A stretch of DNA of 64,000 bases from Candidatus Heimdallarchaeota archaeon (GTDB taxonomy: Archaea > Asgardarchaeota > Heimdallarchaeia > Heimdallarchaeales > Heimdallarchaeaceae), in NCBI GenBank assembly GCA_018238545.1, contig JABCTC010000014.1:15933-79932 (forward strand), written 5' to 3'. This document shows positions 1,682-63,702 of the stretch, piece after piece; the first letter of the stretch is position 1, and the number at the start of each line of letters is the position of its first letter. Below the pieces are notes generated by a model. That model searched no databases and had not been told where the DNA came from. It was given only the letters and a program-made list of their open reading frames with translations. The translations under genes were made by a program, and so were the position numbers.

Positions 1682-2524
1682 ATGACGGATTCTAATTCAG
1701 AAATAATGATATCAGCATATGCAATTGCTAAGATACTAGAGGTAGATGCTCTAGATACTTCAAAAGAATCTGCTGGTGTTCTCTTAGGTTATTTTGATGA
1801 AGAAACACAGAAGCTAATAATAACTGATTTTGATACTGGAAAACAAAGACAAACATCAACCTTTGTCGTTTTAGATGATGAAGCTCTTGTTCAGATTGTT
1901 ACAGATTTGCAGAAAAGAGATAAGAAAGAAACAATTGTTGGCTGGGCACATACGCATCCTTCATATGGTTGTTTCCTCTCTGGTACAGACAAGGGAACTC
2001 AAAGAATCTATCAAAATCTCTTCTCAAAAGCAGTAGCTTTAGTGATTGATCCTTCAAAATATTATCAGTCTCAAAAGAGTTCTGATTTAGAAATTCAGTT
2101 CTTTAGGTTAATAGATGATATAGATTACAAAGCAATACCTTATCATCTATATTTTGATGAACACACCATACACATTTCTAACTTAGCCAAGGTTGACCTC
2201 AAATGGGAATTGCCAAAACTAAGAAAAGAAGAGGTTCTACTTCTACATAAGAAGTTGGAAACGATTGTGACTCCGTCTTTAATTGAACAAGATAAGAAAT
2301 TACTTCATGGACTTGTTGATATACTCAGCGAATCTCATGAAATTCTTTCAGAAGTTGGCGAAGAGAAAGAAATTCTTGAAACTATTGATAAAAAACTACA
2401 CTCAATAAACGAGAATGTTACCCGAATTTACAATGAGGAAACAAATAACATCTATTCAATAATGAATGTAGTAGCTGTAATTGTATTAACTATATCTTGG
2501 TTTTTAATTGCTTACTTTGTGTAA
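1682..2524 (+). CDS. JAMM/MPN+ (Rpn11-like) metallo-isopeptidase with C-terminal helical region and tail membrane anchor
   Basis: ESAGVLLG ... IVGWAHTHPSYGCFLSGTD (intact E...HxH-x7-S-x2-D) and VALVIDP. Hydrophobic C-terminus IMNVVAVIVLTISWFLIAYFV. Confidence 0.88.
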   Translation: MTDSNSEIMISAYAIAKILEVDALDTSKESAGVLLGYFDEETQKLIITDFDTGKQRQTSTFVVLDDEALVQIVTDLQKRDKKETIVGWAHTHPSYGCFLSGTDKGTQRIYQNLFSKAVALVIDPSKYYQSQKSSDLEIQFFRLIDDIDYKAIPYHLYFDEHTIHISNLAKVDLKWELPKLRKEEVLLLHKKLETIVTPSLIEQDKKLLHGLVDILSESHEILSEVGEEKEILETIDKKLHSINENVTRIYNEETNNIYSIMNVVAVIVLTISWFLIAYFV

Positions 2525-5542: not shown

Positions 5543-6784
5543 ATGAATTTATTAGAAAGAATATTCAAAATTTCACAATACCTTAAAGACGGAAACTATA
5601 ATGTTCAAGACCAAGAGTTTCAAAAAGACCCTTGGACAATGGAGTATTTACCTGAGTTATTTATTTCTTCTGAACAAGTTAACAGTCAGATTGCGCATTT
5701 AATTCAACATTTAACTGGTGGGAATGCCATGTGCTCAATTGTCGGTGGGCAAAAATCTGGTAAATCATATCTGATGAACATATTATATGATGGTCTGAGA
5801 GAAGATTTATGGAAATATACGAAGTATAGCAAAGTACATGTTTTGTTATTTAATCCTGATAATTTGAAGGAATGTTCTCGTACAAATTACTATATGGCAA
5901 TTGCGGATCAAGTGTTATCAAGGCATTTCACTTCATATGAAGAAGTGATTGTGGAGTTAAAGAGATATTTAGAAGGCAATAATGTTCTTCTAGTAGTTAT
6001 GCTAGACAACTTCCAAACTGACAATCTTTCTTCTATCATAAAAAATACCGCATTACTTCTAAAACCTCTGAAGAATCATTTCTCTTGTGTTTTATCAAAT
6101 CAAATCTACGAAGTTAAACTTTGTATTGAAAGTTTAGATAAAGGAGGAATGAAGCATTTCTCATATACAATTAGGATTCCTGAAGTTCTTTCACTAGAAG
6201 AAACTAAGTTATTGATTCAGAAACGCATATCATATGCTTTGAATCAAATTATTGTGAACGCAACTGACTTTTTCTCTGAAAGGGCAATAGAAGCTGCATG
6301 GATAGAATCTCAAGGAAAACCTTGGCAGTTAATCTCATTATTAGAAGATTCATATACTTATTCCAGGAATCAAGAATCAACAATTGTTTCCCATGATGAT
6401 GTGCTTACTGTAGCTAAACTATTTGATAGGTCAACAAATCAAGCGGGTGTTGAAGATCACGATACTTTTGCTATTCAACAAGCTTTGAACAATTTCCCCT
6501 ATCGAGAAAGACAAGTTTGCCAGTATCTTATGCAAAAGGATGCTAGCGCTAAAGAAATAACAATTTATCTATATGGCGAGCTTCCTTCTAATGAGTACAG
6601 GAGCAAATATATGGGAACTAAGAGTTTCTTAAAACGACTTAAAGATAAAAATGTAGTAGTGGTCAAAAAACAAACTGGGAGATCGTTGATATTTGGTTTA
6701 AACCCAAAGATGAAGGCTATGTTCTCTCAAGGAACTGATAAAAGAGATTCATCTTTAACAATAGAAAGTAAAATGGAAACTTAA
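5543..6784 (+). CDS. AAA+ ATPase with C-terminal winged helix (Orc1/Cdc6-like or archaeal ATPase-like), degenerate Walker B
   Basis: Walker A GGQKSGKS, Walker B VVMLDNF, sensor-II-like ESQGKPW, and C-terminal wHTH (ASAKEIT...FLKRLKDKNVV...GRSLIFGL). Confidence 0.7.
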   Translation: MNLLERIFKISQYLKDGNYNVQDQEFQKDPWTMEYLPELFISSEQVNSQIAHLIQHLTGGNAMCSIVGGQKSGKSYLMNILYDGLREDLWKYTKYSKVHVLLFNPDNLKECSRTNYYMAIADQVLSRHFTSYEEVIVELKRYLEGNNVLLVVMLDNFQTDNLSSIIKNTALLLKPLKNHFSCVLSNQIYEVKLCIESLDKGGMKHFSYTIRIPEVLSLEETKLLIQKRISYALNQIIVNATDFFSERAIEAAWIESQGKPWQLISLLEDSYTYSRNQESTIVSHDDVLTVAKLFDRSTNQAGVEDHDTFAIQQALNNFPYRERQVCQYLMQKDASAKEITIYLYGELPSNEYRSKYMGTKSFLKRLKDKNVVVVKKQTGRSLIFGLNPKMKAMFSQGTDKRDSSLTIESKMET

Positions 6785-6806
6785 AAAAGGAAAAAAGGGA
6801 GAAAAA

Positions 6807-7940
6807 CTATTTTTTGGCTATTAATTTGATTATTGTTATGATCTTGAAAATCACATATGCTAATAATAGATTTATTAACAGAAGGTTGGTGAATTCAGTA
6901 AATATTGGGAACCAAGTTGCTGATTCTAGATAGAAATAACCACCTTCAAAGAGATTCTGCAGAGGATAACTATAAGCGCATATTATTAGAAATGGAACAA
7001 GATTCAGTATAAAGAATGGTCCTTCAAAGTTATATCGTATTTTACCTGATGTTCCTTCAGCTCTTTGATAAGTGATAAAGGCCAAACCTATTCCAATTCC
7101 AAATCCTACTATTGGTAATATGTATAACCCATTCAGACCTGTAATAGCCATAAAACTACCATTTGGGACTTTCGAAAACATTTCGTTGAGAAATTGAGTG
7201 TTTGTTTCTCCAAAGATAGAAACTGCTGTAGCATAATCAAATATAGTATTTGATAAAACTATAAATGCAAGAGCTCCTATAATGCTTAATAATATTATAA
7301 TTTGACCAATGATCTCGAATTTCTTACCATTCAATTGTTTTGTAACGATTTTTCTTGAAATAATAATGAATATAATCATGAATATCAATGAAAAAACAGC
7401 TACAATAGTATCCCAAACTGGAACATTATTTATAAATTCTCCAAATGATATTCTTACTGAATTATTATGAAAATCAGTTTGAGCTTCTTGAAGAGATAAG
7501 AATATACTTACTCCCGATCCAATAAATCCTTGAAGACCGAAAACTATTCCTATTAATAGTAACCCAGTTCTTCCAGTCATCTCAATTGATGCAAAGAATC
7601 CTGCGAAGAAGGCTGTTACAATAAATATGATAAGAAGTGCAGCCAATCCTAATTCAACTGTTTCATATGGGTTGTAGAATGACAATACTGCCGCAGCACC
7701 TATAAGAATAGAAGCAACAACATTTTTTGCCATAGCACATGAAACAAAAATAATTGCCAAAGTGAAAGTTATTGTAATTGGAGTGATCCAGTTCCACAAA
7801 GTTTCTGCTTGTAGAATTCCCAACCATGGAAGAAGGAATTCAGTTACTGCAACCAAACCTGCTCCGAAAAACGTTGATAGTAAGGCTCTAAGCGAGAAAA
7901 ATTGTCCTAGATGAAAGTATTTTACGTTTGTCATATACAT
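6807..7940 (-). CDS. Polytopic membrane protein, unknown function
   Basis: About 10 hydrophobic segments. Confidence 0.75.
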   Translation of the reverse strand: MYMTNVKYFHLGQFFSLRALLSTFFGAGLVAVTEFLLPWLGILQAETLWNWITPITITFTLAIIFVSCAMAKNVVASILIGAAAVLSFYNPYETVELGLAALLIIFIVTAFFAGFFASIEMTGRTGLLLIGIVFGLQGFIGSGVSIFLSLQEAQTDFHNNSVRISFGEFINNVPVWDTIVAVFSLIFMIIFIIISRKIVTKQLNGKKFEIIGQIIILLSIIGALAFIVLSNTIFDYATAVSIFGETNTQFLNEMFSKVPNGSFMAITGLNGLYILPIVGFGIGIGLAFITYQRAEGTSGKIRYNFEGPFFILNLVPFLIICAYSYPLQNLFEGGYFYLESATWFPIFTEFTNLLLINLLLAYVIFKIITIIKLIAKK

Positions 7941-8027
7941 CGTACTCTCTGATATAATTTAACTAATATTATGGATATTAAGTCTTATGGGAAAAAAAAG
8001 CTTTTGGCTGTACCCAATCGAATACAG

Positions 8028-8402
8028 CTATTGAGGTTTCATTGAAATCATCGTACATCCAATGAACGTAATTAAACCAGATCCTGCTGCAATCATTATT
8101 GTCGCAATACTACTGATTGCGGGTTGAAGGGCTGCAAGATCATTTTGCCAAACAGCTAAGTATACTGTAAAAATTATCAGAGCTGCTATCATTAATCCTG
8201 TGAAAACAAGATATGCATTCTTTTCTTCAGATTTGAAGACTCTTGAAACTGATCCTAGCGAGAAACCACCTAATATTCCTATACCTAGATAAAACAAAAG
8301 CCACCAGAACTGTGTAGTTAATTCAACGATGGTAATCGTAACACCTGCGATTCCTATGGCAACTAATATTCCACCAATGAATGATATGGGTCTAGCACTC
8401 AT
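8028..8402 (-). CDS. Small 4-TM membrane protein
   Basis: Four hydrophobic helices; upstream GGAGA RBS-like motif. Confidence 0.75.
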   Translation of the reverse strand: MSARPISFIGGILVAIGIAGVTITIVELTTQFWWLLFYLGIGILGGFSLGSVSRVFKSEEKNAYLVFTGLMIAALIIFTVYLAVWQNDLAALQPAISSIATIMIAAGSGLITFIGCTMISMKPQ

Positions 8403-8516
8403 TAAATCATCTCCAGTATTTTATCTCCAAGTTTATTATATTAATATTTCTAAATCATTTGTGAATACAAATTTACTTTATTAGTTTCAAACCTTTCTTA
8501 ATAATAGAAAGAACAG

Positions 8517-9254
8517 CTATTCTTTAGACAAATCCTCGATAATTGTTCCATCATTCATTACAAGCTGTCTTTGAGCTAAAATTGCTTGGTCATTAGAGTG
8601 AGTAACATAAATTAGCGTTTTTTTATGTTCTTTGCTTAAGTCTATTAGAAGATCAAGGATTCTCTTACCTGTACTTGAATCAAGATTCCCTGTCGGTTCA
8701 TCCGCAAGTATTATCTCTGGATCATTTGCCAGAGCCCGTGCAATTGCAACTCGTTGTTGCTCTCCTCCGCTCAATTGGTCGGGTTTGTGATTTCTCCGTT
8801 CCAACAACCCTACAGCGCCAAGCAACTCTTCTACTCTTATTTTTCGCTCTTCTTTAGGTTTTTTTGATAGAATCAATGGAATTTCTATATTCTTTTCTGC
8901 GTTTAATTCTTCTAACAAATTGAAATTTTGAAAAACATATCCAATTGTTTCTCTTCGTACAAAGCTTAATTCCCTATCACTTAATTTGTTAAGCTCTTGA
9001 CCATCAACTGTAATGGTTCCTGAATCTAAGTAATCTAAAGCCCCAATTAGGTTTAGTAATGTTGTTTTGCCTGATCCCGAAGGACCAACTATGGATACTA
9101 TCTCACCTCTATGTATTGACACTGTAACGCTATCTAGCGCTTTGACCATCACTTCACCTAGAGAATACTTCTTCGAAACATCTATGATATTTATGAAGTT
9201 CTTTTTTGTTTTTCTCTTAGTTTTCCTTGCAGTGCTCGTAGATTCTTGAGACAT
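8517..9254 (-). CDS. ABC transporter ATP-binding protein (LolD/MacB type)
   Basis: [47 protein letters not shown]. Confidence 0.93.
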
Positions 9255-9614: not shown

Positions 9615-11690
9615 TTAAGTAGAATACGTTTTTAGTGTCCTTTTTGTAACGCGGGTTTTGCAAATTGGGCACTCTTCTTTTATTTTAAGCCACTGTTCCA
9701 TGTGCTCTTTGTGGGCTAAATTGGTACATGTAGGGCATTCCATAACAGTCTCACCGTGCTTAATTAGTCCTTGACATATTGAGCACTTGGTAGGAAGCTC
9801 CTTACAGTTCTTACATGGTTCATTTACAGATTCAATAACATGCCCACATTTCAAACAGTGTGTCTTTTTAGATGGGAGTCTAATTCTTGTTAGTCTTTCA
9901 AAAGTTGATTGAGTTAGAGAACCTTGATAATAACCATGAGCAATAAGTTGACTAGTCATTTTGAAAATGTCAATTTCTGGCAGATTCAACTTCTCAGCAA
10001 TCGTTACTAGTCGGATTTTCCTTCTTCTGGATTTTTCTATCTCATTTACAACCCTAATATAGATTTCTCCAAGATCTTTTAGCTCTCTACTAGGTAAGAT
10101 TTTCTGGAAAGATTCAACGTATACAGCGCTTCCTCTGAGCTCAATATTTAGCAATCCAGAACCCACTAGTTCAAAAATTATGTTGGTTACAGCTACAGCT
10201 GATTTTTCCCAAATTTTCTGTATAGATTTCAAAGATGTTTTTGGATTAGAAATGATGTAGCCAAATATTTCCTGATAGTGAATAGGCAAGTCATCTAATT
10301 GAACAAGAGGTGGAAATAGAGGAATCTCTTCTGGAATGAGTTTATTTCCTTCTATTGATCCTTTAATTAACCCCTTACCATAGAAACCATATAGTCTTTC
10401 TTTTGCATGGTGCTTGTCAATACCTAATGCAAGCGATATATCTTTGGTTGTAATATAAGCTTTAGAAACAATCATTCCTAGAACTATTTTTTCCCATCTT
10501 TCTAATGTTCCTTCTTGAGCCCTACTATATCTCTTGATTCCTTCTATAATCAGAACGTTTCCACTTAATGAGCATTTTACAAATCCTTCCAAAAGTAAGT
10601 TAATGACTCCTTCTAAAATCTCTCCATCGGTTCTATTCATTAAGGCACCAAGTCTTCGTAACGAAATTTTCTTTTGTGTCGAAAGAAGGCCAAATAGTGC
10701 TTCATAACTAAAGAATGATAAAGTCGCCATCTCCTCTATTGTTCTTGTTGGACTAAATTCAGGTATAGTAACTGGTACAATATCGTTTGTTCCTAAAAAT
10801 ACAACTTGGAAGGTTCCTCTTGCAGTTAGAGTTGCTAAAGTTCTTAGAATTTCGTTTCTTTCCTTTCCTATGAATTTGCTAATCTCTTGATGAGAAGCTT
10901 TTTTGGTTAATAAGAGGTAACCTATAACTTCTTTTTCAATTCCTTGTAAAGTTGATAAAGGAATAATCTTAGGTTCGATAATATATTTTGTAATATTGAT
11001 GAATACTGAAGTGGTTCCAAGTTTTTTCTTCTTGAATTCCAATTCTGCTTCTAATTTCTTTAACAGCAAAAGCTTTGATATTTTTTCTATGATTACTTCT
11101 TTAGGAAATTCAGTAATTTTTGAAATTGTGATTATGTTTGCTTTTCTCAGCATCATAGCAATTCCAACAATAAATGTATCGTCTTCCGTAAGTTTAATTT
11201 TCTCGTCTGGTGCCCAGTTCCATTGTACAAAAACATTCTCTTGCTTTATTGATCCTATAAATAAACCCCGACTTGTCAGGAAAAATAAGTGATTAATAAG
11301 TTCTTTCTTTGATATGCCTACTATTTCTGAAAGATTCGACATACTCACTTTTTCTGATTGAGATAAAAATCCAAGAATTATCTTTCTTAATGGTGTCACT
11401 CGTGAAGAATTTATTTTGGGATACTTGTATATTGTTGCTATAGAAAATATGCTTCTTCTGTATGAACCTCTCACAATGAGAGCTTGTACCATTAACTGAA
11501 TATAATCTTTAATTGCTTCAACTGGAATTTTATAGTTAGTTGAAAACTCTGTTAAATTAATCTCTCTCAGCAAGTATAATTGAGTTAAAATTTGTGCTCT
11601 CATACGTTTTGAAATGTCAACTTCTGGAAGATCTAAATCACTAAACTTAATTTCATAGACATCATCTCTCTCAAAAGCCAGTTGTACCAT
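9615..11690 (-). CDS. Tandem winged-helix (PCI-like) repeat protein with C-terminal Zn ribbon and RING finger (putative E3 ligase)
   Basis: About 8 wHTH-like repeats, then CLKC..CKNC, then CSIC-x12-CPTC-x4-H-x2-H..W..CPIC. Confidence 0.75.
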   Translation of the reverse strand: MVQLAFERDDVYEIKFSDLDLPEVDISKRMRAQILTQLYLLREINLTEFSTNYKIPVEAIKDYIQLMVQALIVRGSYRRSIFSIATIYKYPKINSSRVTPLRKIILGFLSQSEKVSMSNLSEIVGISKKELINHLFFLTSRGLFIGSIKQENVFVQWNWAPDEKIKLTEDDTFIVGIAMMLRKANIITISKITEFPKEVIIEKISKLLLLKKLEAELEFKKKKLGTTSVFINITKYIIEPKIIPLSTLQGIEKEVIGYLLLTKKASHQEISKFIGKERNEILRTLATLTARGTFQVVFLGTNDIVPVTIPEFSPTRTIEEMATLSFFSYEALFGLLSTQKKISLRRLGALMNRTDGEILEGVINLLLEGFVKCSLSGNVLIIEGIKRYSRAQEGTLERWEKIVLGMIVSKAYITTKDISLALGIDKHHAKERLYGFYGKGLIKGSIEGNKLIPEEIPLFPPLVQLDDLPIHYQEIFGYIISNPKTSLKSIQKIWEKSAVAVTNIIFELVGSGLLNIELRGSAVYVESFQKILPSRELKDLGEIYIRVVNEIEKSRRRKIRLVTIAEKLNLPEIDIFKMTSQLIAHGYYQGSLTQSTFERLTRIRLPSKKTHCLKCGHVIESVNEPCKNCKELPTKCSICQGLIKHGETVMECPTCTNLAHKEHMEQWLKIKEECPICKTRVTKRTLKTYST

Positions 11691-52332: not shown

Positions 52333-53175
52333 TTATCTTCTTATTAACTGATCTAAATCAGTACTTACTTCTTTTACGTTAGCAACAATTCTATTTTGAC
52401 CTAATCCTTTTGTTCCATCATCCTCGATAGTTGCAGCTGTTAAAAATAATGGTTTATAGAATTCTCTGATCATTTGCTTCCCGTCTCCTAGCAAACAAGA
52501 ACATGTACCTGTGTATTTGTCTCCATCAGTTCTCTTAACTCTAAAGAAACTAACATGATTTGCTCTCTCTCTCCAGATAATTAGATTTGCACTAAGGATT
52601 ATATTGTCTCGTATAATGTGACCCAGGAAAACGTTTGGATCTAAACCTAATTCATATAATTTACTGCTTGGAACTTCATCGAAGTTTGTAAGAATCATCA
52701 TCTTCGTATTCTTAGATAACTGTTTGTATCTTTCAAGTGGAACCTGCTCTGTTGATTCTTTAATTACAAAAGTATAGGACCTATCTCTTCGTAATGTATA
52801 TGCAGCTTGGTATTCTATCATTGCTGACGCAAGATTCAGTATGATTAGAGCTTCATTTTTGTTAAGTTCAAATTTATCAACAGACTGAACTGGTACTTTA
52901 GACTTCGAAAGTAAACTACATATTAAAACTCCAATCAAATCATGAGATAAAGATCCCGCTATAATACATCCAGATGGAAGAACAATTGCAGGTAGAGGGT
53001 TTAGTGGAACTCCTTTCTTCTCAGCTGTTTCCCTGCTCTTGTTAACTTGGTGCACTTTCACCTTTATTTCATCAGTCTTAAGTGCTCCAATAACAGCAGT
53101 TAAGAATTTCAGAGTAGGTATACAATGATTACAATTTTCCTCATGAATGTAAATTTCTATTTCCATAAGCCCCAC
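52333..53175 (-). CDS. Thioredoxin/glutaredoxin-like domain fused to a putative DICT-like sensory domain
   Basis: N-terminal CNHC and cis-Pro-like PLPAIV; C-terminal LASAMIE..A...ERYKQLS pattern. Confidence 0.55.
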   Translation of the reverse strand: MGLMEIEIYIHEENCNHCIPTLKFLTAVIGALKTDEIKVKVHQVNKSRETAEKKGVPLNPLPAIVLPSGCIIAGSLSHDLIGVLICSLLSKSKVPVQSVDKFELNKNEALIILNLASAMIEYQAAYTLRRDRSYTFVIKESTEQVPLERYKQLSKNTKMMILTNFDEVPSSKLYELGLDPNVFLGHIIRDNIILSANLIIWRERANHVSFFRVKRTDGDKYTGTCSCLLGDGKQMIREFYKPLFLTAATIEDDGTKGLGQNRIVANVKEVSTDLDQLIRR

Positions 53176-55556: not shown

Positions 55557-55741
55557 TTAATTTCTCCTATTTTCCTGATTTTTGCAATACTAATTAATTA
55601 CAGATGAATTGTTATAATGACTAGACTGTTGTTGCGTTAGTCTCTATTTTTCTCGAAGTTGTTATCTTGGTTGGAATCTAAAAGAATCTTTATATTAATC
55701 TTATACCATAGTTGTCATTAGACAAAAATTGGAGGTCTAAA

Positions 55742-58700
55742 ATGAAATTTAAAACAATTATGGGTTCGACTTTAGTTGGTTTTACAATCATTCTACTAAC
55801 AATGAGTAGTACAGTTACACAAGCTCATATATCCTCACAGAATGCTAGTTCAAACCTCGAAGTAGATCCAATATTTATTGAAGAAATGAATATTATAGCA
55901 GGTAAAGATTCAGCTGCACTAGTACAATTAATTTTACTAGGTGCGAGCGCTCCAACCATTGCATCAAACTCACTATTCGCAAGTGTAATGAATTGGTTAT
56001 TTATTGCCTCAGATCAAGCAGATTATCTTCCATATCTTGTAAGAAGACCTTTCAGAGCTGCAGATAATGCAACATTAATTTTAGAAATTGATGGCTCTTT
56101 AGGTGCTACTGGAAGTCTTGCTCATGCTGTGCAATTAAGTATCCTTTTTGCAACATATTACGATGTAGGTTTGTTCTGGTCAGGAGCTGACAAACTTCCA
56201 AATAACAACTACCTATACTACTTTACAGGTGGTATGGAGAACACAATTTTTAATACTCTAATTACAGAGATAAAAACTGATGTTGGTACAGGTTTTGCTT
56301 CACTACTTGACCCAGCAACAGTTAGTGGTGCTCCCGTAAAAGCCGTTGTTATTGGTGAAGGGTTTATTGAAGGAAGAATGCTTCCTGTTCGTGGAGTTTT
56401 CTACGTAGATGCTACCGCAATTACAGGTACAACAACTTACACAATGTCAACTTTAGAGTTGTTTGGAACAGATGTAGTTGCAAAAACTGGTGTTGGGATA
56501 TACTATTCTACACTAAAATTCAACTTTCCATATACAATTAATCCTCTCGAAATATCCCCAAGAACAGATAATTTTGCCCCTCATATAACTGGAAAAATGG
56601 ATTGGTTGCTTAATGCACCTTGGCGATTAGCTAGACCAGCTCAAGAGTATTATGTTATTTTTGACATTAATCATGAAGCGTTGACTTCAGCTCCTAGAGT
56701 TTCTGTAAATATGGCATATGATCAAGACATGCTAAATAATGAAGGTCGTTTACAGATGGATTATGTTGTGACCAATACAGGAACAGAAAACGCAACCGAT
56801 ATTGATATAAGTTACCCACTTGGACCAGACTTTCTAGACTTTCTAGCTAGTAGGCCAAAAATGCCAACACTAAATCCAGATGTTGAAATCGATGAGACAG
56901 CATTAATCGTTATAAATGCAACAATCGATATTGTCATTGATGGTACATTAGGAGAAGCTGTAGAAGATCAGCATTTCAACCAAATTGCTCTAGTATTAGA
57001 GGGTTGGTATAGATGGAAAGCAAATGGCTCTTTGGTTGATTTTGATCCGCTTGTGACCGATGCTGTTGTGAAATCAGAAGTAGCATTTGTAGATGCAGGA
57101 TATGACGTTTCTGGAACTGTAACTTCAACTATAGCTCTACATTGTGACGATGGACTTTCAAACATACTAGTATCAGAATCTATCGCTTTTCTAGCTGATA
57201 TAGATATAGCTGATTACACACCCTCTCTTTTAACAATTAGTGAAATCTTAGCAGATTATGAAACTGAGCTATGGGGTGCAGTAGAAGCTACTGGAACTCG
57301 ATTATATAATTTACTATACACAGAGCAAACTATCTTTAATCCTGACCCAATGAACTTTACATTCTCTGTTCGAGATGTAGGAGTAATTGGATCTGATTCA
57401 TATCATGAGGAAGTTTTCTTAAGTACAACAATATTATCCCTAGCTCCCGGTGAATCAGTAAATGTCAGTTGGGCATTAGATAATATACCAGCTAAAGACG
57501 ATTTATTTGGAATCATGCATGTTGAAGTAATTGATAACGGAGATTCTACATTTGCAATTAAACTAAAAACAATTCAAAGAGATGGTTATGACTTGATGAG
57601 ATTGCTTTTCGGTTTAGGAGATCCAGGTGCAACATTCACATATAGTCGCCCACTCAGTTTCTATAGTCCATGGGACAACAACTGGATTTCAGTAGGTGCT
57701 AGATATAGTTATCTTGATGAACAAGGTTTCGAATATTATGGTTTCAGTAACGGTATAAACTTACAAATTGCCGATGATGAAGCTGTTCTTAATATCCATG
57801 TTTCATTAGATCAAACTGGTTACACAGTTGGAGACGCAACAACTGTAACTTATTCTGTTACAAATACTGGAAATCTTGCTGCTGAAAATGTCAAAATCTA
57901 TCTCTTCCATGGAAGAATGGGTAGCGACTGGCAAATTAGAGATGCTGAAATGTTCTGGTATGATGACGTTGGAACAGTTGTTGCTGGTGGAAGTTACGTC
58001 GGAACAGCTGATGTTTTCGCCAATTCATTCCTAGGAATTCATCCAGTGTATGCTATTGCAGAATTCGATACTGATGTTGGTCAAACCACAGCATTTATCG
58101 ATTTCGGAAACGGTTTAACTGCTTTCTTTGAAGGCGCAGCAGAAACTCACCATTTAGTATTATCTAATATGGATTGGGCTATGTTACTCCCTGACACAAC
58201 TAATAGAGAACCAGCATTCCCACAACCAATACTATCAATCGATGTATCTGTGTTATTCATCATCCCAGATGATGCTCCTTGGGAATTAGAGATTTCTATT
58301 ACTATCACCAACATTGGTGACGAGACTACTCACTTGACCATCTATCAGATATACAATGCAACTTCAATGGACTTATTGCACAAAGAATCCACTTTAGGTA
58401 GCATTGCTAATGATACAGCTTATGGATTAGGTGTTATTGTTTTCATGGGTATAACACTAGCTCCTGGTGAATCAGTCGAGATTACTATGCGATGGTTATT
58501 CCTAACAAGCAGTGGATGTTTCATTCCAGGAATTCGTATAGTCTATGATAGTAGATTTGAGAATGAACTGGGTGATGATCCAATGGGTGATCCTCCAGAA
58601 GCAGCTGTTATGTCAGCGATGAATGGTCAAGCTCAAGATAATGAAGATTGGGAAGACTATGGAGAATCAACATCAACAGGATCTTCAGCTGGTGCTGATG

Positions 58701-58822
58701 TCTTTACTGGTGGAGATAACACTCGTAGAACAGGATCATTTGATGCCATTTATTGGTCATTAGGTGCAATCTTCATTGCTGCAACAGTTTCAACCATGTT
58801 AAGAAGAAAACTTAAACACTAA
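55742..58822 (+). CDS. Large acidic cell-surface / S-layer-like protein with Ig/CARDB-like domains
   Basis: GGAGG RBS, signal peptide, repeated V/ITNxG and LAPGES motifs, C-terminal TM + RRKLKH. Confidence 0.8.
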   Translation: MKFKTIMGSTLVGFTIILLTMSSTVTQAHISSQNASSNLEVDPIFIEEMNIIAGKDSAALVQLILLGASAPTIASNSLFASVMNWLFIASDQADYLPYLVRRPFRAADNATLILEIDGSLGATGSLAHAVQLSILFATYYDVGLFWSGADKLPNNNYLYYFTGGMENTIFNTLITEIKTDVGTGFASLLDPATVSGAPVKAVVIGEGFIEGRMLPVRGVFYVDATAITGTTTYTMSTLELFGTDVVAKTGVGIYYSTLKFNFPYTINPLEISPRTDNFAPHITGKMDWLLNAPWRLARPAQEYYVIFDINHEALTSAPRVSVNMAYDQDMLNNEGRLQMDYVVTNTGTENATDIDISYPLGPDFLDFLASRPKMPTLNPDVEIDETALIVINATIDIVIDGTLGEAVEDQHFNQIALVLEGWYRWKANGSLVDFDPLVTDAVVKSEVAFVDAGYDVSGTVTSTIALHCDDGLSNILVSESIAFLADIDIADYTPSLLTISEILADYETELWGAVEATGTRLYNLLYTEQTIFNPDPMNFTFSVRDVGVIGSDSYHEEVFLSTTILSLAPGESVNVSWALDNIPAKDDLFGIMHVEVIDNGDSTFAIKLKTIQRDGYDLMRLLFGLGDPGATFTYSRPLSFYSPWDNNWISVGARYSYLDEQGFEYYGFSNGINLQIADDEAVLNIHVSLDQTGYTVGDATTVTYSVTNTGNLAAENVKIYLFHGRMGSDWQIRDAEMFWYDDVGTVVAGGSYVGTADVFANSFLGIHPVYAIAEFDTDVGQTTAFIDFGNGLTAFFEGAAETHHLVLSNMDWAMLLPDTTNREPAFPQPILSIDVSVLFIIPDDAPWELEISITITNIGDETTHLTIYQIYNATSMDLLHKESTLGSIANDTAYGLGVIVFMGITLAPGESVEITMRWLFLTSSGCFIPGIRIVYDSRFENELGDDPMGDPPEAAVMSAMNGQAQDNEDWEDYGESTSTGSSAGADVFTGGDNTRRTGSFDAIYWSLGAIFIAATVSTMLRRKLKH

Positions 58823-58910: not shown

Positions 58911-61883
58911 ATGTCTTCTTTAGTACTAAAATCAGATAACTTCATATTTCATCGTCTGACGCTCTGCAATTTTAAGATGCATAAGTTCACAGAATTAGAA
59001 CTGTCTGAACTGCCGATTATAGTAATTTCGGGCGCAAACGGAAGTGGAAAGACACAGTTACTTGAAGCTCTTATACTTTCAATTGGGCATACACCAAGCA
59101 GAGTAAGTTTAAGTTCGTACAAAGATCTTGTTGGACCCTTTGATGATCATTGTATAATTCAACTATTTTTGCGTAATCCTATAATAAATGATCAAAGAAT
59201 AATTTCTAGTTCAGATCCTGATATTAGCAACATTGTAAACAAAGATAGATTTCATTTAGAAATAAGAATCAACAAAGAAGGAGATATGAGAAGAAGTATT
59301 GTAGACACTAAAGGTAAAAAGCAATCTATTGCTCGAAAGCAAGTACAAAGATTAATGAAAAGCATTGGCATTTATGATGATACAATGCTCAATTTTACAG
59401 AGGAGGGGTATCTAAGCTCATTTGCTGATGGTTCCCCTCGTAAGAAACTAGACAGTCTTCTTGCAGCTACTGGACTAAAAGAGATATTTGCAAGTTATTT
59501 AACTTCAAAGAGGAGAGTTGATGAAAAAAATAAAGAATTCTCTCCTTTGGTGTTGCAACTTGAAAAAGAAAAAACTTCTCTGAGCAAACTGAAAGAAAAT
59601 TTCGAAAGATTAGAAAAAAAGAAAGAACTTATCACCCGTTTTGAGAATGTTGATAGAGAATTGGTTTGGTTTAACGCACTCGAGAGCAAAGACAGATTGC
59701 GAGAATCTAAAGAAGAACTTACATCCAAGAAGAATGAATTAAGTAATCTAAGCACACAGCTCCAATCTACCAACGAGGACTATAATAAAACTAGAAAAGA
59801 ACTTGAGAATCTCGAGAAAGACAATAATAACTTGATCAATGAGAGAGACATTTTAAGTGACAAAGTAAGCCGATTCGAGGGACAAAAAGAGGAAAAGGAA
59901 CGAAAAATAAACCAATTCAAGGAAACTCTCAACAACTTAGATGAGAAACTTACTGAATTTCGCAAAGTAAAAACAAATGATACTTTGAATGAAAAAATTA
60001 ACCTTCAAGATCAACTTAACAGTATTAAGAAGCAGCAGAAGCATATGAATGTTAGAATATTAGATATCTCAAAGGAATTGAAAGAAAAATCCAATGAAGA
60101 GAACGTGATCAAGAAACGTATAGATGAACGAGCTAGTCTATATGGTGACTTAAGTGAATATGAGCGAAATCTTGTAAAAGATTCTATAAAATTCAAAGAA
60201 GGTATCAAATCCTCTCACTACTCAAAAGAAATTATTGGACCAGTTTATGAAGTTATAACAATCTTGCCTGATTTTGTGAAGTATTCTGAAGTAATAAAAC
60301 AAGCTTTAGGTAGAAATTTATTTGGATTCATTGCTACTTCTGAGGAGGCATATCATGCAGCCAAAGAAATTTATGATAACATCTTCCCATCATTCAAGCC
60401 TAACTTCACTGTAGGAAGAGTATTAGAAGAAGAACAAGGTCCTAAACCTGATTATCTCACGTCCACTAGTTTGAAGGAGAAACCAGATGGTGTGATTGAT
60501 AATGTTATTAATTTAATAAAAACCTCTACTCAAGTTAAACTATATCTTAAACGATTTGTAAACATTGTTCTTGCATTTCCTGAATTACCTCCAAATCTCC
60601 TCACTAATTATGCAAAACAAATCAGGGCAAATATTCTAACAACTGATGGTAAGAGCTTCTATCTATCTAGAGAAGCTTTTTCCAGACCACCAAGTAAATA
60701 TCGTGTGAGATTAAACGTTTCTTTGGATAAATACTTATCAATAGAAAGAATACGAGAAAATTTACAAGCTCTTTACACTAACATGGAAGAGTTAGCTGCG
60801 GAAGAAAGTCAATATATTCAGGAAAGAAGTGAACTTGAAAATAAGAAAAGAGAGATAGAAAATCATCTTCGTCCATGGGAAATGTCAGGTGATGAAGTAG
60901 AAAGAGAATTCATCAATCTAGAAAGTAGAAAGAATGAAGTGGAACAACAATTAGGCGAAGAACGCAATGGTTTGGAGCAGATAAATGCTAAAATCGAAAA
61001 TCATGCCTCTCAATTAATAAAAATGGATAATGGGTTGAAAATCAAGAGAGGTCTCGAACAAAATAAGAGAAGCGAATTTTCAGAGTTATCTCACAGAATC
61101 AATGAACTTTCATCCAGAAAAAATAGAATTATTAGACATGTTGAATTGTTGAAAATAGAGGTTGAGGAAATAGATAAACTACTCAGTGAATTACTCAGTT
61201 TAGCTCAAGAGAAAGGTTTGCAACCTGAAGTGATTCGTGAAAATAAAGAAGATATCTTTTCTGAATATAGCAAAATTAAAGGACAGCTTGAACTTCTTGA
61301 AATAACACCTGAAGTTACAGAAGAAACTCTGAAAGAACAAGATCGTAAAGTTGAGGTACTACAGACAGAAGTAGAAGAAAATCAAAAACACTTGGACAAT
61401 CTTAAGAAAGATCTGGCAAAACGTTTAGCGGAATGGGAAGGTAGTTTAAAACAAATCGTTTCTCATCTTAATAAGATGCTCAATTTACTTCTGAAAGATG
61501 TTTTTGAGAATATCTCTTTAAGCATTGTAAATTACAATGATGAAAAAAATTCCGGGTTAATAATTGAGGCTGAAACTAAAGGCGATGATAGAAAGTATAG
61601 ACAGTTATCAGGTGGAGAAAAAACGTTAATAGCTCAAGCCATAATCTTAGCACTTCATATGATAAACCATTCCCCGATTCATGCCATTGATGAATTCACA
61701 CAAAAATTAGATAAGAAAAATAAGTCATTAGCTTTTGCAATGGCTTTAGCTACTTACGAGATAGCAAAGGAGAACAGATCTATAACTCCTCAATTTATTC
61801 TAATTACTCCTTCGCTTGATGATGTTCAACTTTCCGATGAGTTTACACATAAAATATTAATTGAATCAAAGGTGATTGTATGA
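58911..61883 (+). CDS. SMC5/6-type SMC ATPase
   Basis: NFK.H, Walker A GANGSGKT, long coiled coils, hinge IIGPVYEVI...ALG..L.GFI, signature LSGGEKT, Walker B SPIHAIDEFTQKLD, QFILITP. Confidence 0.9.
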   Translation: MSSLVLKSDNFIFHRLTLCNFKMHKFTELELSELPIIVISGANGSGKTQLLEALILSIGHTPSRVSLSSYKDLVGPFDDHCIIQLFLRNPIINDQRIISSSDPDISNIVNKDRFHLEIRINKEGDMRRSIVDTKGKKQSIARKQVQRLMKSIGIYDDTMLNFTEEGYLSSFADGSPRKKLDSLLAATGLKEIFASYLTSKRRVDEKNKEFSPLVLQLEKEKTSLSKLKENFERLEKKKELITRFENVDRELVWFNALESKDRLRESKEELTSKKNELSNLSTQLQSTNEDYNKTRKELENLEKDNNNLINERDILSDKVSRFEGQKEEKERKINQFKETLNNLDEKLTEFRKVKTNDTLNEKINLQDQLNSIKKQQKHMNVRILDISKELKEKSNEENVIKKRIDERASLYGDLSEYERNLVKDSIKFKEGIKSSHYSKEIIGPVYEVITILPDFVKYSEVIKQALGRNLFGFIATSEEAYHAAKEIYDNIFPSFKPNFTVGRVLEEEQGPKPDYLTSTSLKEKPDGVIDNVINLIKTSTQVKLYLKRFVNIVLAFPELPPNLLTNYAKQIRANILTTDGKSFYLSREAFSRPPSKYRVRLNVSLDKYLSIERIRENLQALYTNMEELAAEESQYIQERSELENKKREIENHLRPWEMSGDEVEREFINLESRKNEVEQQLGEERNGLEQINAKIENHASQLIKMDNGLKIKRGLEQNKRSEFSELSHRINELSSRKNRIIRHVELLKIEVEEIDKLLSELLSLAQEKGLQPEVIRENKEDIFSEYSKIKGQLELLEITPEVTEETLKEQDRKVEVLQTEVEENQKHLDNLKKDLAKRLAEWEGSLKQIVSHLNKMLNLLLKDVFENISLSIVNYNDEKNSGLIIEAETKGDDRKYRQLSGGEKTLIAQAIILALHMINHSPIHAIDEFTQKLDKKNKSLAFAMALATYEIAKENRSITPQFILITPSLDDVQLSDEFTHKILIESKVIV

Positions 61884-62635
61884 CAGACCAAGAATCTACA
61901 GGTGAAGAAAAGGGCTCTGAGACAACTATTGTTGAAGAGACAGGGGATTGGTCTGAAATAATCTTTCAAACTCTCTTTGAATTAGAGAAAAAGTATTCTA
62001 AATCACTCAGGAAGAAAGAAGTAGTTGGAGTGTATGAGTCGGAAAATGATAGGAAGCGAGTATCTGATGCATATATCTACCTTAATAGTCAGAGGGAGAG
62101 CTTAGTGGATTCTGCGCTGTATGAGGGCTTCATCAACATGAGTGAGTTGAGAGAATCAAGTTATTTGGAACAGATGTTTCTTCTAGAACAAAGATTGAAT
62201 GATTTTGGGCAATTTGTCGCAAAATCATGTCAGTCGGTATTTTTTACAATGGGGAAGCCTACTATAGAATATAGCAGTATTGATTTCGAAGCTAAAACAG
62301 AGTTGATAGCAACTGATGATAAGGCTGAAATCAAGCTCTTCATTCGGAAAAATCAAGATAGACTTAGAGTGTTTGAAAGCACTTTTTTGAGTTATGGTGA
62401 TATATTGAATTATGAAAAAGACTTATTTGAAAAGCTTCTAAATAAAAGATTCAAGAAAAAGGAGTTAGAAGATTTATTATCAGTAATTGAAACTGAAATC
62501 TTATCTAAGCTGATTAGTGAGAAAAAAATACGGATGGTTCAAAAAGGCGAATATCTTGTATTTTCAAAAAATGGTGATTATGAAGAAATAGAAGGAATAT
62601 CTAGTAGCGTTCTTCTATCTCCAAAGAAAAACTAA
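61880..62635 (+). CDS. Putative kleisin (Nse4/ScpA-like)
   Basis: ATGA overlap with the SMC gene; 251 aa; C-terminal ILSKLISEKKIRMVQ..YL resembles the kleisin C-terminal winged helix. Confidence 0.55.
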   Translation: MTDQESTGEEKGSETTIVEETGDWSEIIFQTLFELEKKYSKSLRKKEVVGVYESENDRKRVSDAYIYLNSQRESLVDSALYEGFINMSELRESSYLEQMFLLEQRLNDFGQFVAKSCQSVFFTMGKPTIEYSSIDFEAKTELIATDDKAEIKLFIRKNQDRLRVFESTFLSYGDILNYEKDLFEKLLNKRFKKKELEDLLSVIETEILSKLISEKKIRMVQKGEYLVFSKNGDYEEIEGISSSVLLSPKKN

Positions 62636-62638
62636 GAA

Positions 62639-63250
62639 GTGATTGTGCTAATGGAAGAGGATTTTAACAATATTGACGAAATGCAAGGCACCAAACCTGA
62701 AGTTGTCAAGCTTCCAGCAGCTATAACAGATGAAGAAAAAAGTGAATTATTCAAAGAGCTAACTACTATACTGTCTAGAAAATGGGTAAAAAACAAAATA
62801 TTCGTTTTTGGGAGTTCAGAGATTGATCTTCTGCTTGCAACAAGATTTGATATCGATACACTTCGTGAGATCATTGAAGAATACAAAAGCTTTGTTGAAA
62901 TTCTTGGCCTGGAAGTGGTGGAATACACTATTGATGGTGAAACATGGTATAGTTTGAAATCTGCATTTTATGCTCCTTCAGAATTATTAAAGAGTGAGTT
63001 TATTGTTCTTGGAACAATAATTGGAATCCTTGAAACCCAAACTGGACCTCTTTCTACCAAGACAATTAAAGAAAAACTAACTGATACAAACAGAATGAAA
63101 GCATATCAAGTAGATTTATGTTTACGAAAATTAGTACAACAAGGTTACATAAAGAAGTTACACAACGTTTGGTCATATAATTATAGAACTCTAGTCGAGT
63201 TTGGAGAAGAGGAAAGGAGAAAAATAACAGAGGAGTTTCGAAAAATTTGA
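62639..63250 (+). CDS. Putative KITE subunit (Nse1/Nse3-like tandem winged helix)
   Basis: LREIIEEY...LGLEV...GE.WY.L (WH-A) and LRKLVQQGYI....WS...RTLVEF (WH-B). Confidence 0.7.
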   Translation: MIVLMEEDFNNIDEMQGTKPEVVKLPAAITDEEKSELFKELTTILSRKWVKNKIFVFGSSEIDLLLATRFDIDTLREIIEEYKSFVEILGLEVVEYTIDGETWYSLKSAFYAPSELLKSEFIVLGTIIGILETQTGPLSTKTIKEKLTDTNRMKAYQVDLCLRKLVQQGYIKKLHNVWSYNYRTLVEFGEEERRKITEEFRKI

Positions 63251-63702
63251 AAGAACTTGAAATTTTACACTGTTATATTAGATGTGCGTTTTGTAATTCA
63301 CTGATGATGGTGAAAGAAGCGGCATTAGAAGGCTGGGAAGTCTGTAATGGCTGTCAATTAGTATTTTGTTCTAAATGTAAAGACGAATATAAATCATTAG
63401 AAGTTTGTCCGGGTTCAGTTTATGTTAGTGAACACAAACCTATTTTTGACTTGTTGCCTATCGAACAGATATTTGATCTCTCAAAGCAGATGCAAAGAAA
63501 ACCAAAAGAGGGACGGTTTGTTGCGAAAATATTTTTCGAAGATGAAAAAACAAAAGTGAATATTATAGAAAATAGAAACAAACAGAAACTAGAAGCTGAT
63601 TTCAACATAGTAAGATTCAGAGAAGAACAATGGAGAAAATTTGGAACTGTTTTGGTAAAAAGAAAGGATGGAAAATTTCTCACTTGGGGTCAAATTGATT
63701 AA
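63247..63702 (+). CDS. RING/PHD-like Zn-finger protein (Nse1-RING-like)
   Basis: C-x2-C-x16-C-x2-C-x4-C-x2-C-x9-C-x8-H. TTGA overlap with the KITE gene and upstream GAGGAG. Confidence 0.65.
   Translation: MKELEILHCYIRCAFCNSLMMVKEAALEGWEVCNGCQLVFCSKCKDEYKSLEVCPGSVYVSEHKPIFDLLPIEQIFDLSKQMQRKPKEGRFVAKIFFEDEKTKVNIIENRNKQKLEADFNIVRFREEQWRKFGTVLVKRKDGKFLTWGQID

Follow-up and report, generated by a model that had tools for sequence, protein, structure and literature searches.

The operon described here lies at the end of a 64,000-nucleotide stretch of DNA (the window; G000:C7:15933-79932), where G000 is a Heimdallarchaeaceae genome that is 91.8% complete. In the open reading frame (ORF) listing, four plus-strand ORFs at 58911-63702 encode a structural maintenance of chromosomes (SMC) ATPase, followed by a kleisin-like, a kite-like, and a RING-like protein (Table 1). 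ORF1 and ORF2 are joined by an ATGA overlap (61880-61883), ORF2 and ORF3 are separated by a 3-bp gap (62636-62638), and ORF3 and ORF4 share a TTGA overlap (63247-63250), while the true start of ORF3 may be a later ATG at 62651. An earlier reading of the DNA without database searches (the sequence-only reading) had described a four-gene SMC5/6-like operon here, and we found its ORFs, junctions, and quoted motifs all in place. The contig ends 298 bp past ORF4, and the downstream side was therefore taken from relatives. A scan for promoters and terminators gave nothing above chance.

Table 1. Coordinates of the operon genes and their motifs in the window
Feature	Position	Strand	Description or basis
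SMC ATPase (clade A), 990 aa	58911..61883	+	N-head, coiled coil, globular hinge ~aa 430-600, coiled coil, C-head
Walker A GANGSGKT, aa 41	59031..59054	+	sequence; invariant in 18 family members
Q-loop region FTEEG	59394..59408	+	Glu165 aligns with Q-loop Gln of human SMC6; E165 nearly invariant
Hinge start, IIGPV (aa 441, 60231) ... ALG (aa 465)	60231..60323	+	aligns with yeast Smc6 hinge
Signature, Walker B/D-loop, QFILITP strand	61605..61811	+	sequence; invariant columns
Kleisin-like protein, 251 aa	61880..62635	+	N-terminal helical domain, unstructured linker, C-terminal winged helix
Kite-like tandem winged-helix protein, 203 aa	62639..63250	+	weak profile/atlas likeness, position
RING-like zinc-finger protein ORF4, 151 aa	63247..63702	+	N-terminal finger and conserved C-terminal helical part
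Zinc-ligand array C13-x2-C16-x16-C33-x2-C36-x4-C41-x2-C44-x9-C54-x8-H63	63283..63435	+	eight ligands, four pairs

The C-terminal head of the SMC protein carries LSGGEKT at aa 899 (61605), AIDEFTQKLD at aa 925 (61683), and QFILITP at aa 961 (61791). A profile of 18 family members, searched against the PDB sequences, matched human SMC6 (7e-39) and yeast Smc6 (6e-37) best, with the hinge aligned, followed by SMC4 (3e-26), SMC5 (3e-25), archaeal Smc (1e-19), and Rad50 (6e-9). The Pfam SMC_hinge cut-off was passed by the orthologues in three genomes (G069, G112, and G048), the window SMC itself falling below it. Because the sequence contains no CxxC, the protein lacks a zinc hook; a hook-bearing Rad50-like protein is encoded separately in G000, on C73. 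By similarity, the assignment of the protein as SMC5/6-related is well supported, in agreement with the proposal of a hinge-bearing SMC of this type rather than a Rad50. The proposed homodimer also gained support, since the operon contains a single SMC gene, and no second hinge SMC was found in G000 or in two single-contig relatives.

Head-domain trees (284 columns) were built with SMC6, canonical Smc, and three other prokaryotic SMC5/6-like clades, with SMC5 and SMC1-4 not included. The clade of the window's SMC, which we call clade A, was fully supported in them. Under the LG model, clade A grouped with SMC6 and Asgard clade C (support of 80), then with the Bathyarchaeia (91) and Asgard clade B (89), apart from canonical Smc. 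Under C20 without Rad50, canonical Smc formed a 100/100 group, and A, C, D, and SMC6 were split from B and canonical Smc at 97/93; the branching order of A, C, and SMC6 received no resolution, and the deep nodes collapsed when Rad50 was included. The head phylogeny, which had been named as a check, gives a mixed answer: the LG tree parts clade A from canonical Smc, but an approximately unbiased (AU) test did not reject their grouping (p 0.16). As judged by the tree, therefore, the predicted SMC5/6 relationship is moderately supported.

In the predicted model of ORF2, a long helical domain at the N-terminus is connected by a low-confidence linker to a winged helix at the C-terminus, an architecture that, as modeled, is the kleisin plan. 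Its best Foldseek match was a chain of the SMC5/6 core complex (7tve_G, E 0.03) aligned over both domains, and 7qcd_F and condensin chains were also among its full-length matches; we take these chains to be Nse4 and condensin kleisins. Against ScpA, the hhalign probability of ORF2 was 0.6%. We also considered ORF2 as a second kite, which was rejected, as an early match to an Nse1 profile (E 1e-3) vanished with a deeper alignment and the model lacks two winged helices. For ORF3, the atlas features were those of uncharacterized Asgard clusters (0.92), MAGE (0.82), and DUF4194 (0.79). A shallow profile of ORF3 had Nse1 as its best PDB match (E 0.15), and a deep one matched the genes in third place in other SMC operons of Asgards (E 8e-8 to 2e-3), as did a direct hhalign comparison (E 6e-4 over 129 columns). 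Pfam named no family for ORF2, ORF3, or ORF4, and PF04079 (ScpB) had no match in ORF3 or in the genome. On their position and these weak fold and profile matches, ORF2 is a probable kleisin and ORF3 a probable kite, consistent with what had been read from the sequence. Three runs of a complex prediction with the kleisin, two kites, and ORF4 scored 0.49, 0.00, and 0.02 and were not used either way.

ORF4 belongs to a small family, with 55 matches among 1.8 billion representatives. All eight zinc ligands are invariant in 14 homologues of its own order, and six of them (C13, C33, C36, C41, C44, and C54) were scored as invariant in 42 homologues, with C16 replaced by His in some and C41 being Asp in family f16. 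The spacing of the last ligand pair is atypical for a RING. The finger is modeled with a predicted local distance difference test score of 84-93 over residues 11-80, and the C-terminal helical part ends in an E-x-W...KRxxGKFxTW motif. The sequence and fold matches of ORF4, although all weak, are mostly to RING and U-box proteins, with RING giving the best single Pfam E-values (2e-4). The Nse1 RING family was missing among the 25 Pfam matches listed for 42 members, and chains of Smc5/Nse2 structures matched at Foldseek E ~3 only. Together with the eight ligands, the RING and U-box matches support the reading of the fourth gene as RING-like.

In every locus read, the RING is a separate ORF and the kite gene is single. 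A fused kite-RING form was not seen among the longer ORF4 relatives, though no search aimed at longer proteins was made. Those relatives (P0046, P0050, P0054, P0058, P0059 [L164]; 243-363 aa) begin with a helical part and carry this zinc finger at their C-terminal end; they had no kite-family match, and the one that was checked is not beside an SMC gene. We take the helix position after the sixth ligand (+1) to be an E2-contact site, as in known RINGs. This position is Lys or Arg in 14 of the 16 sequences of the window's family, with +4 mostly polar, and it is non-basic and nearly always hydrophobic in 25 sequences linked to the conjugation cascade described below. The window ORF4 itself has Lys at +1 and Tyr at +4. 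Since the change concerns one lineage and the window protein keeps the +4 Tyr, we regard the mostly polar surface predicted for E2 binding as no more than a hint.

The four-gene order is kept in about 20 of the 23 genomes of the window's genus, to which Heimdall AB_125 also belongs, and it recurs in other Heimdallarchaeia, further Asgard families, and metagenome-assembled genomes (MAGs) of Planctomycetota. Such an order, kept across the genus, several other Asgard families, and Planctomycetota, is not due to chance, and the conservation that the sequence-only reading had expected across Asgard genomes was thereby borne out by synteny. All four ORFs are under purifying selection, with overall ratios of nonsynonymous to synonymous substitution (dN/dS) of 0.04-0.21 as computed against relatives whose SMCs are 86-89% identical. 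The values were 0.11-0.13 for the SMC gene, 0.12-0.16 for ORF2, and 0.12-0.21 for ORF3, with ORF4 having the lowest (0.04-0.06). The locus is single-copy and vertically kept among housekeeping neighbors in 23 of the 25 family genomes; the genes around it are conserved across genera, and downstream of the fourth gene the relatives run on into ABC-transporter genes. The operon has no JetD toprim nuclease, as had been noted earlier, its fourth gene being a zinc finger. It also has no Nse5/6-like gene, although no genome-wide search for Nse5/6 was made.

Some variation was seen at and around the operon. Directly upstream of the SMC gene, in the window (55712-58822, plus strand) and in several genera of the family, lies a gene for a secreted or membrane-anchored protein with CARDB/DUF11 Ig-like domains (1036 aa in the window). 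In a single-contig genome (G069, L144:14639-15280), a duplicated 5′ SMC fragment and a partial copy of the upstream gene precede an intact operon. In G024 (L055:9264-9845), the SMC and kleisin genes are separated by a TATA-binding-protein-like gene that reads in the opposite direction. A lone clade-A-like SMC was found in G083 (L134); 4.5 kb upstream of it, a kite-like gene lies on the opposite strand, and that locus gave no kleisin or RING match.

In some relatives outside the family, the operon is longer. In Gerdarchaeales-type (Gerd-type) Heimdallarchaeia (L084, L088, L089, L102, L104, L116), it runs on into genes for a JAB protease, an E1, a ubiquitin-like protein (Ubl), and an E2, and in Planctomycetota (L092, L094, L128) it continues likewise; the archaeal eight-gene loci further include a small acidic ORF. 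The catalytic residues are intact (JAB E/HSH/S/D; E1 GxGxxG and Cys; E2 HPR and Cys), and the Ubl ends in VG, beyond which some Planctomycetota Ubls extend. The archaeal loci examined have the RING gene directly after the kite gene. The linkage takes other forms as well: in family f16, Ubl-E2-RING2 lies head-to-head with the SMC arm and JAB-E1 converges; in G048, SMC-kleisin-kite-RING-JAB-E1 are together and Ubl-E2 are elsewhere; and in four Planctomycetota genomes the SMC gene stands alone, with RING and Ubl-E2 found at other places. The cascade is accompanied in f6, f16, and f27 by a second, shorter RING paralogue, and a dedicated E2 was found in eight of the nine genomes of f6 and both of f27. 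The cascade-bearing lineages have canonical Smc, too.

The Planctomycetota copies form two separate groups nested among Asgard sequences (L092, L094, L098, L099, L119, L121, L128; L107-L109, L117, L124, L125; L155-L163). Some are full operons and others are dispersed, and ORF4 is retained elsewhere in genomes with a broken-up operon. We rejected contamination as their source because they occur in many independent MAGs with GC contents of 33-72% and bacterial-looking neighbors, one of them on a 5.97-Mb contig, and because dispersed partner genes are found in the same genomes. On that contig (G155, L118, ~5959-8709), the SMC match reaches only to query residue 862, a transposase-like ORF comes next, and the genome keeps E2 copies but gave no RING match; since the match stops early, next to such an ORF and without a RING, this SMC system may be decaying.

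The window's own family presented a different pattern. ORF4 was found in 23 of 25 family genomes and a dedicated E2 in none of the 25. The Ubl and E2 of the cascade were found in none of 40 genomes of the order, positive controls having worked, and the shorter RING paralogue was not found in the family. The four-gene unit, which had been called minimal, is thus better read as reduced, given that relatives carry the JAB-E1-Ubl-E2 module that this family lacks. As the long form is spread more widely, its presumed ancestry and its loss in the window's family would be the simpler reading. Genes of more general kind are present elsewhere in G000, namely, E1, Ubl, JAB, and E2 at C114:22386-28232, an E1 with a UEV/E2-like gene and ESCRT-II-like genes at C21:30606-35107, and a further E2 on C71.

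The canonical complex is nearly always missing as well. No Smc-ScpAB was found in G000 or in two single-contig genomes of the family, in which the clade A SMC is the only hinge SMC. None of 30 family genomes had an ScpB over the cut-off, and the three canonical Smc matches among them lie on contigs of 2.6-3.9 kb. These are probably misbinned, as the contigs are short and one match is 71% identical to a Gerd-type Smc.

The RING-like gene is also restricted within the wider set of SMC5/6-like systems. Clades B and C and the Bathyarchaeia operon have an SMC with kleisin-sized and kite-sized genes and no ORF4 homologue, and ORF4 was found in none of nine genomes of family f3 and none of 19 large genomes of f5, probably Hodarchaeales, of the same class. 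A different SMC5/6-like Asgard clade (L136-L138; f23, f20) has an SMC6-type Walker B (DEFDVFLD/DEFDVYLD), and its SMC gene is followed by kleisin-sized and kite-sized genes, a primase large subunit gene, and a ThiF gene; in the tree it is at least as close to SMC6 as the window's clade. The ThiF gene near the clade C SMC operons comes after a primase gene and was not regarded as a link. A third clade (L139-L143, L148; f10, f13, f26) typically has an AAA ATPase gene upstream and a TFIIB-type zinc-ribbon/winged-helix gene downstream.

SMC-kleisin-kite rings capture and extrude DNA, powered by ATP. The explanation that we favor by a little is that this SMC5/6-type ring is the main chromosome organizer of the family, with ORF4 kept as a structural or regulatory pseudo-ligase. 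The clade A complex is probably the family's only loop-extruding SMC complex, and the ORF4 subunit is probably retained in a non-catalytic form. Following the established architecture of SMC complexes, two SMCs would join at the hinge, the kleisin would connect one SMC's neck with the other's cap and bind two kites through its linker, with ATP cycling at the heads driving DNA loop capture and extrusion. ORF4 would join them as a fifth, stoichiometric subunit, with its conserved C-terminal motif as the probable docking site. In the clade's older form, it may have been a RING-type E3 or adaptor coupling the complex to the dedicated JAB-E1-Ubl-E2 pathway. In Heimdallarchaeaceae, the complex would serve as the main chromosome organizer because the family is without that pathway and nearly always without Smc-ScpAB, leaving ORF4 in the putative structural or regulatory role.

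Several points weigh against this explanation. The kleisin, kite, and RING labels all come from sub-threshold matches, most of the genomes compared are incomplete MAGs, SMC5 sequences were left out of the tree, and the AU test tolerated a grouping with canonical Smc. The polar E2 face reflects one event in one lineage, with the +4 Tyr still in place in the window, and the small families f2 and f4 have a hydrophobic +1 residue yet no E2. The shorter RING paralogue could be the true E3 of the long form, and ORF4 might use the general E1, E2, and Ubl genes of G000.

The last of these points leads to the alternative that survives best, though we hold it to be unlikely: the complex would be the same, with ORF4 still an active E3 that uses the general E1, E2, and Ubl to modify chromosome proteins. 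The E1-Ubl-JAB-E2 genes (C114), the E1 with its UEV/E2-like neighbor (C21), and the E2 (C71) would provide the partners, ORF4 retains all eight ligands and the loop 2 Cys-Pro, and purifying selection is strong; Phe15 and Tyr48 of the window ORF4 presumably occupy typical E2-contact positions, as in RING-E2 structures. However, the basic +1 and mostly polar +4 residues of the family argue against an active ligase, and the general E2 genes are not genetically linked to the operon.

We give a slightly smaller chance to an evolutionary proposal, that clade A is the Asgard source of eukaryotic Smc5/6, with the kite and ORF4 corresponding to a split Nse1 and JAB-E1-Ubl-E2 being the forerunner of its ubiquitin/SUMO arm. 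If true, the ligase link would be older than eukaryotes, and Heimdallarchaeaceae would be a case in which an SMC5/6-type complex took over chromosome organization once both the cascade and the condensin-type Smc had been lost. The related idea that the operon models the pre-duplication SMC5/6 ancestor is weakened, as the tree does not resolve which clade is the sister of SMC6, at least three other SMC5/6-like clades have no RING, the RING gene is missing in f5, and two related families are without the system.

Lower again, and doubtful to us, is the view that the main task of the complex is to restrict plasmids or viruses, as Wadjet and eukaryotic SMC5/6 do, with Ubl conjugation as the effector of the long form. 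Bacterial E1-E2-JAB systems are often antiviral, and the patchy distribution, the two Planctomycetota groups suggesting transfer, and the role of the clade A SMC as a second SMC beside canonical Smc in cascade-bearing lineages would all fit. However, the operon encodes no nuclease or other effector, it is single-copy and vertically kept among housekeeping genes in 23 of 25 family genomes, and two single-contig genomes have no hinge SMC besides this one. The role in restricting extrachromosomal DNA that the sequence-only reading had raised thus finds no support in the genomic context. We consider it still less probable that ORF4 is a DNA- or protein-binding binuclear finger resembling FYVE, IBR, or B-box, its place between kite and JAB being incidental and the SMC and Ubl genes only co-regulated. 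Most of the top structural matches and nearly all deeper-profile PDB matches are to RING or U-box, the best Pfam E-values (2e-4) are to RING, and the linkage with E1, E2, and Ubl persists through several rearrangements in two domains of life. Finally, we find it very improbable that the SMC is a condensin-type Smc that evolves fast, has a divergent ScpA and ScpB as partners, and resembles SMC6 by artifact: the AU test (p 0.16) and the collapse of deep nodes under C20 with Rad50 leave it some room, but the SMC6 profile E-value is 20 orders better than that of Smc, G055, G152, and G048 carry both a clade A SMC and a canonical Smc, the latter forms a 100/100 group without Rad50, and ORF2 scores 0.6% against ScpA in hhalign.

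Other genes of the window were noted in passing. At 1682-2524 (plus strand), a JAB/MPN-family protease gene with a C-terminal hydrophobic segment lies between a kinase-like ORF and folate/F420-ligase-like genes; it was rejected as the missing JAB of the operon, being a distant paralogue (E 3e-5) with unrelated neighbors. A 691-aa protein (9615-11690, plus strand) has repeated winged-helix-like segments and a C-terminal Cys/His array resembling a canonical RING-H2 finger, and a 280-aa protein (52333-53175, minus strand) that the genus conserves (L061) combines a thioredoxin-like CxxC N-terminus with an unassigned C-terminal part.

Of the eukaryotic SMC complexes, Smc5/6 is the least understood, and no other has ubiquitin and SUMO ligases built in; in the current reconstruction, these ligases are additions made by eukaryotes. 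An SMC5/6-type complex with a RING-like subunit and a linked Ubl cascade would place SMC and Ubl conjugation together outside eukaryotes, whether by descent or by convergence. With four to eight genes, in vitro reconstitution of the system is feasible. The window's family offers a natural version lacking both the cascade and condensin, in which a structural role of the RING subunit can be separated from a ligase role and in which one can ask if an SMC5/6-type complex alone organizes the chromosome. We take the family UBA460 to be the family of the window.

Among known systems, the closest are the archaeal SMC5/6-related operons. Van Hooff et al. (10.1101/2024.01.07.573240) described SMC5/6-related SMC-kleisin-kite operons in TACK and Asgard archaea, proposed homodimers, and stated that the Nse1 RING was gained in eukaryotes and is lacking in archaeal kites; a UBA460 genome is listed in their supplementary table together with Hermod and Sif genomes, and no Planctomycetota members are reported. 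The operons of that study and of Yoshinaga and Inagaki (PMC8665677) resemble that of the window in having an SMC5/6-type SMC gene followed first by a kleisin and then by a kite gene. They differ in that no fourth gene or ubiquitin-like module was described for them and in that the window's family has no canonical second SMC complex. As a candidate new archaeal SMC5/6, the four-gene complex therefore keeps its novelty in the undescribed fourth gene but not in the three-gene core, whose prior publication limits the surprise. In the literature, with most subscription journals outside our coverage, we found no description of the fourth gene, the SMC-linked Ubl/JAB module, or the Planctomycetota copies.

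The comparison with bacterial and other archaeal systems is one of partial likeness. Smc-ScpA-ScpB shares the SMC-kleisin-kite order and a homodimeric ring, but the window SMC is in a separate clade, is shorter (990 versus ~1190 aa), and has a DEF..LD Walker B, and no ScpB match exists; in other Asgards, Smc-ScpAB coexists with the clade A system. Wadjet JetABCD and MksBEFG are likewise four-gene SMC operons with a kleisin and a kite, the kites here being weakly DUF4194- and MksE-like. In contrast to them, the fourth gene of the window encodes a zinc finger and not a toprim nuclease, the gene order differs, and the context is stable and of housekeeping type. ClsN/Sph (ASRP) and Rad50 share the SMC-superfamily ATPase heads, whereas the window SMC has a globular hinge without CxxC. 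Coalescin, which the sequence-only reading had named as an SMC5/6 relative, should be dropped from that role, as ClsN is a zinc-hook protein of the separate ASRP clade that dimerizes by its zinc hook (PMC9389158).

Relatives of the window operon hold the same five functions as archaeal ubiquitin operons. The operon of Caldiarchaeum reportedly comprises Ubl-E1-E2-RING-JAB. Unlike in such operons, the module of the relatives is tied to SMC genes, its Ubl ends in a single Gly (VG), and its E2 has an HPR motif; the window itself has the RING-like gene only. With the eukaryotic Smc5/6 holocomplex (Smc5, Smc6, Nse4, Nse1-Nse3, Nse2, and Nse5/6), the window operon shares SMC6-like heads and hinge, the kleisin and kite architecture, and a RING-type finger whose gene immediately follows that of the kite, matching the kite-then-RING domain order of Nse1. 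It differs, however, in having one SMC, one kite gene, and no SP-RING, and in encoding ORF4 as a protein apart, which has a C7H ligand set and carries a C-terminal domain of its own. The complex would function as a simple Smc5/6 does, and it is of the archaeal SMC5/6-related kind and not a eukaryotic holocomplex.

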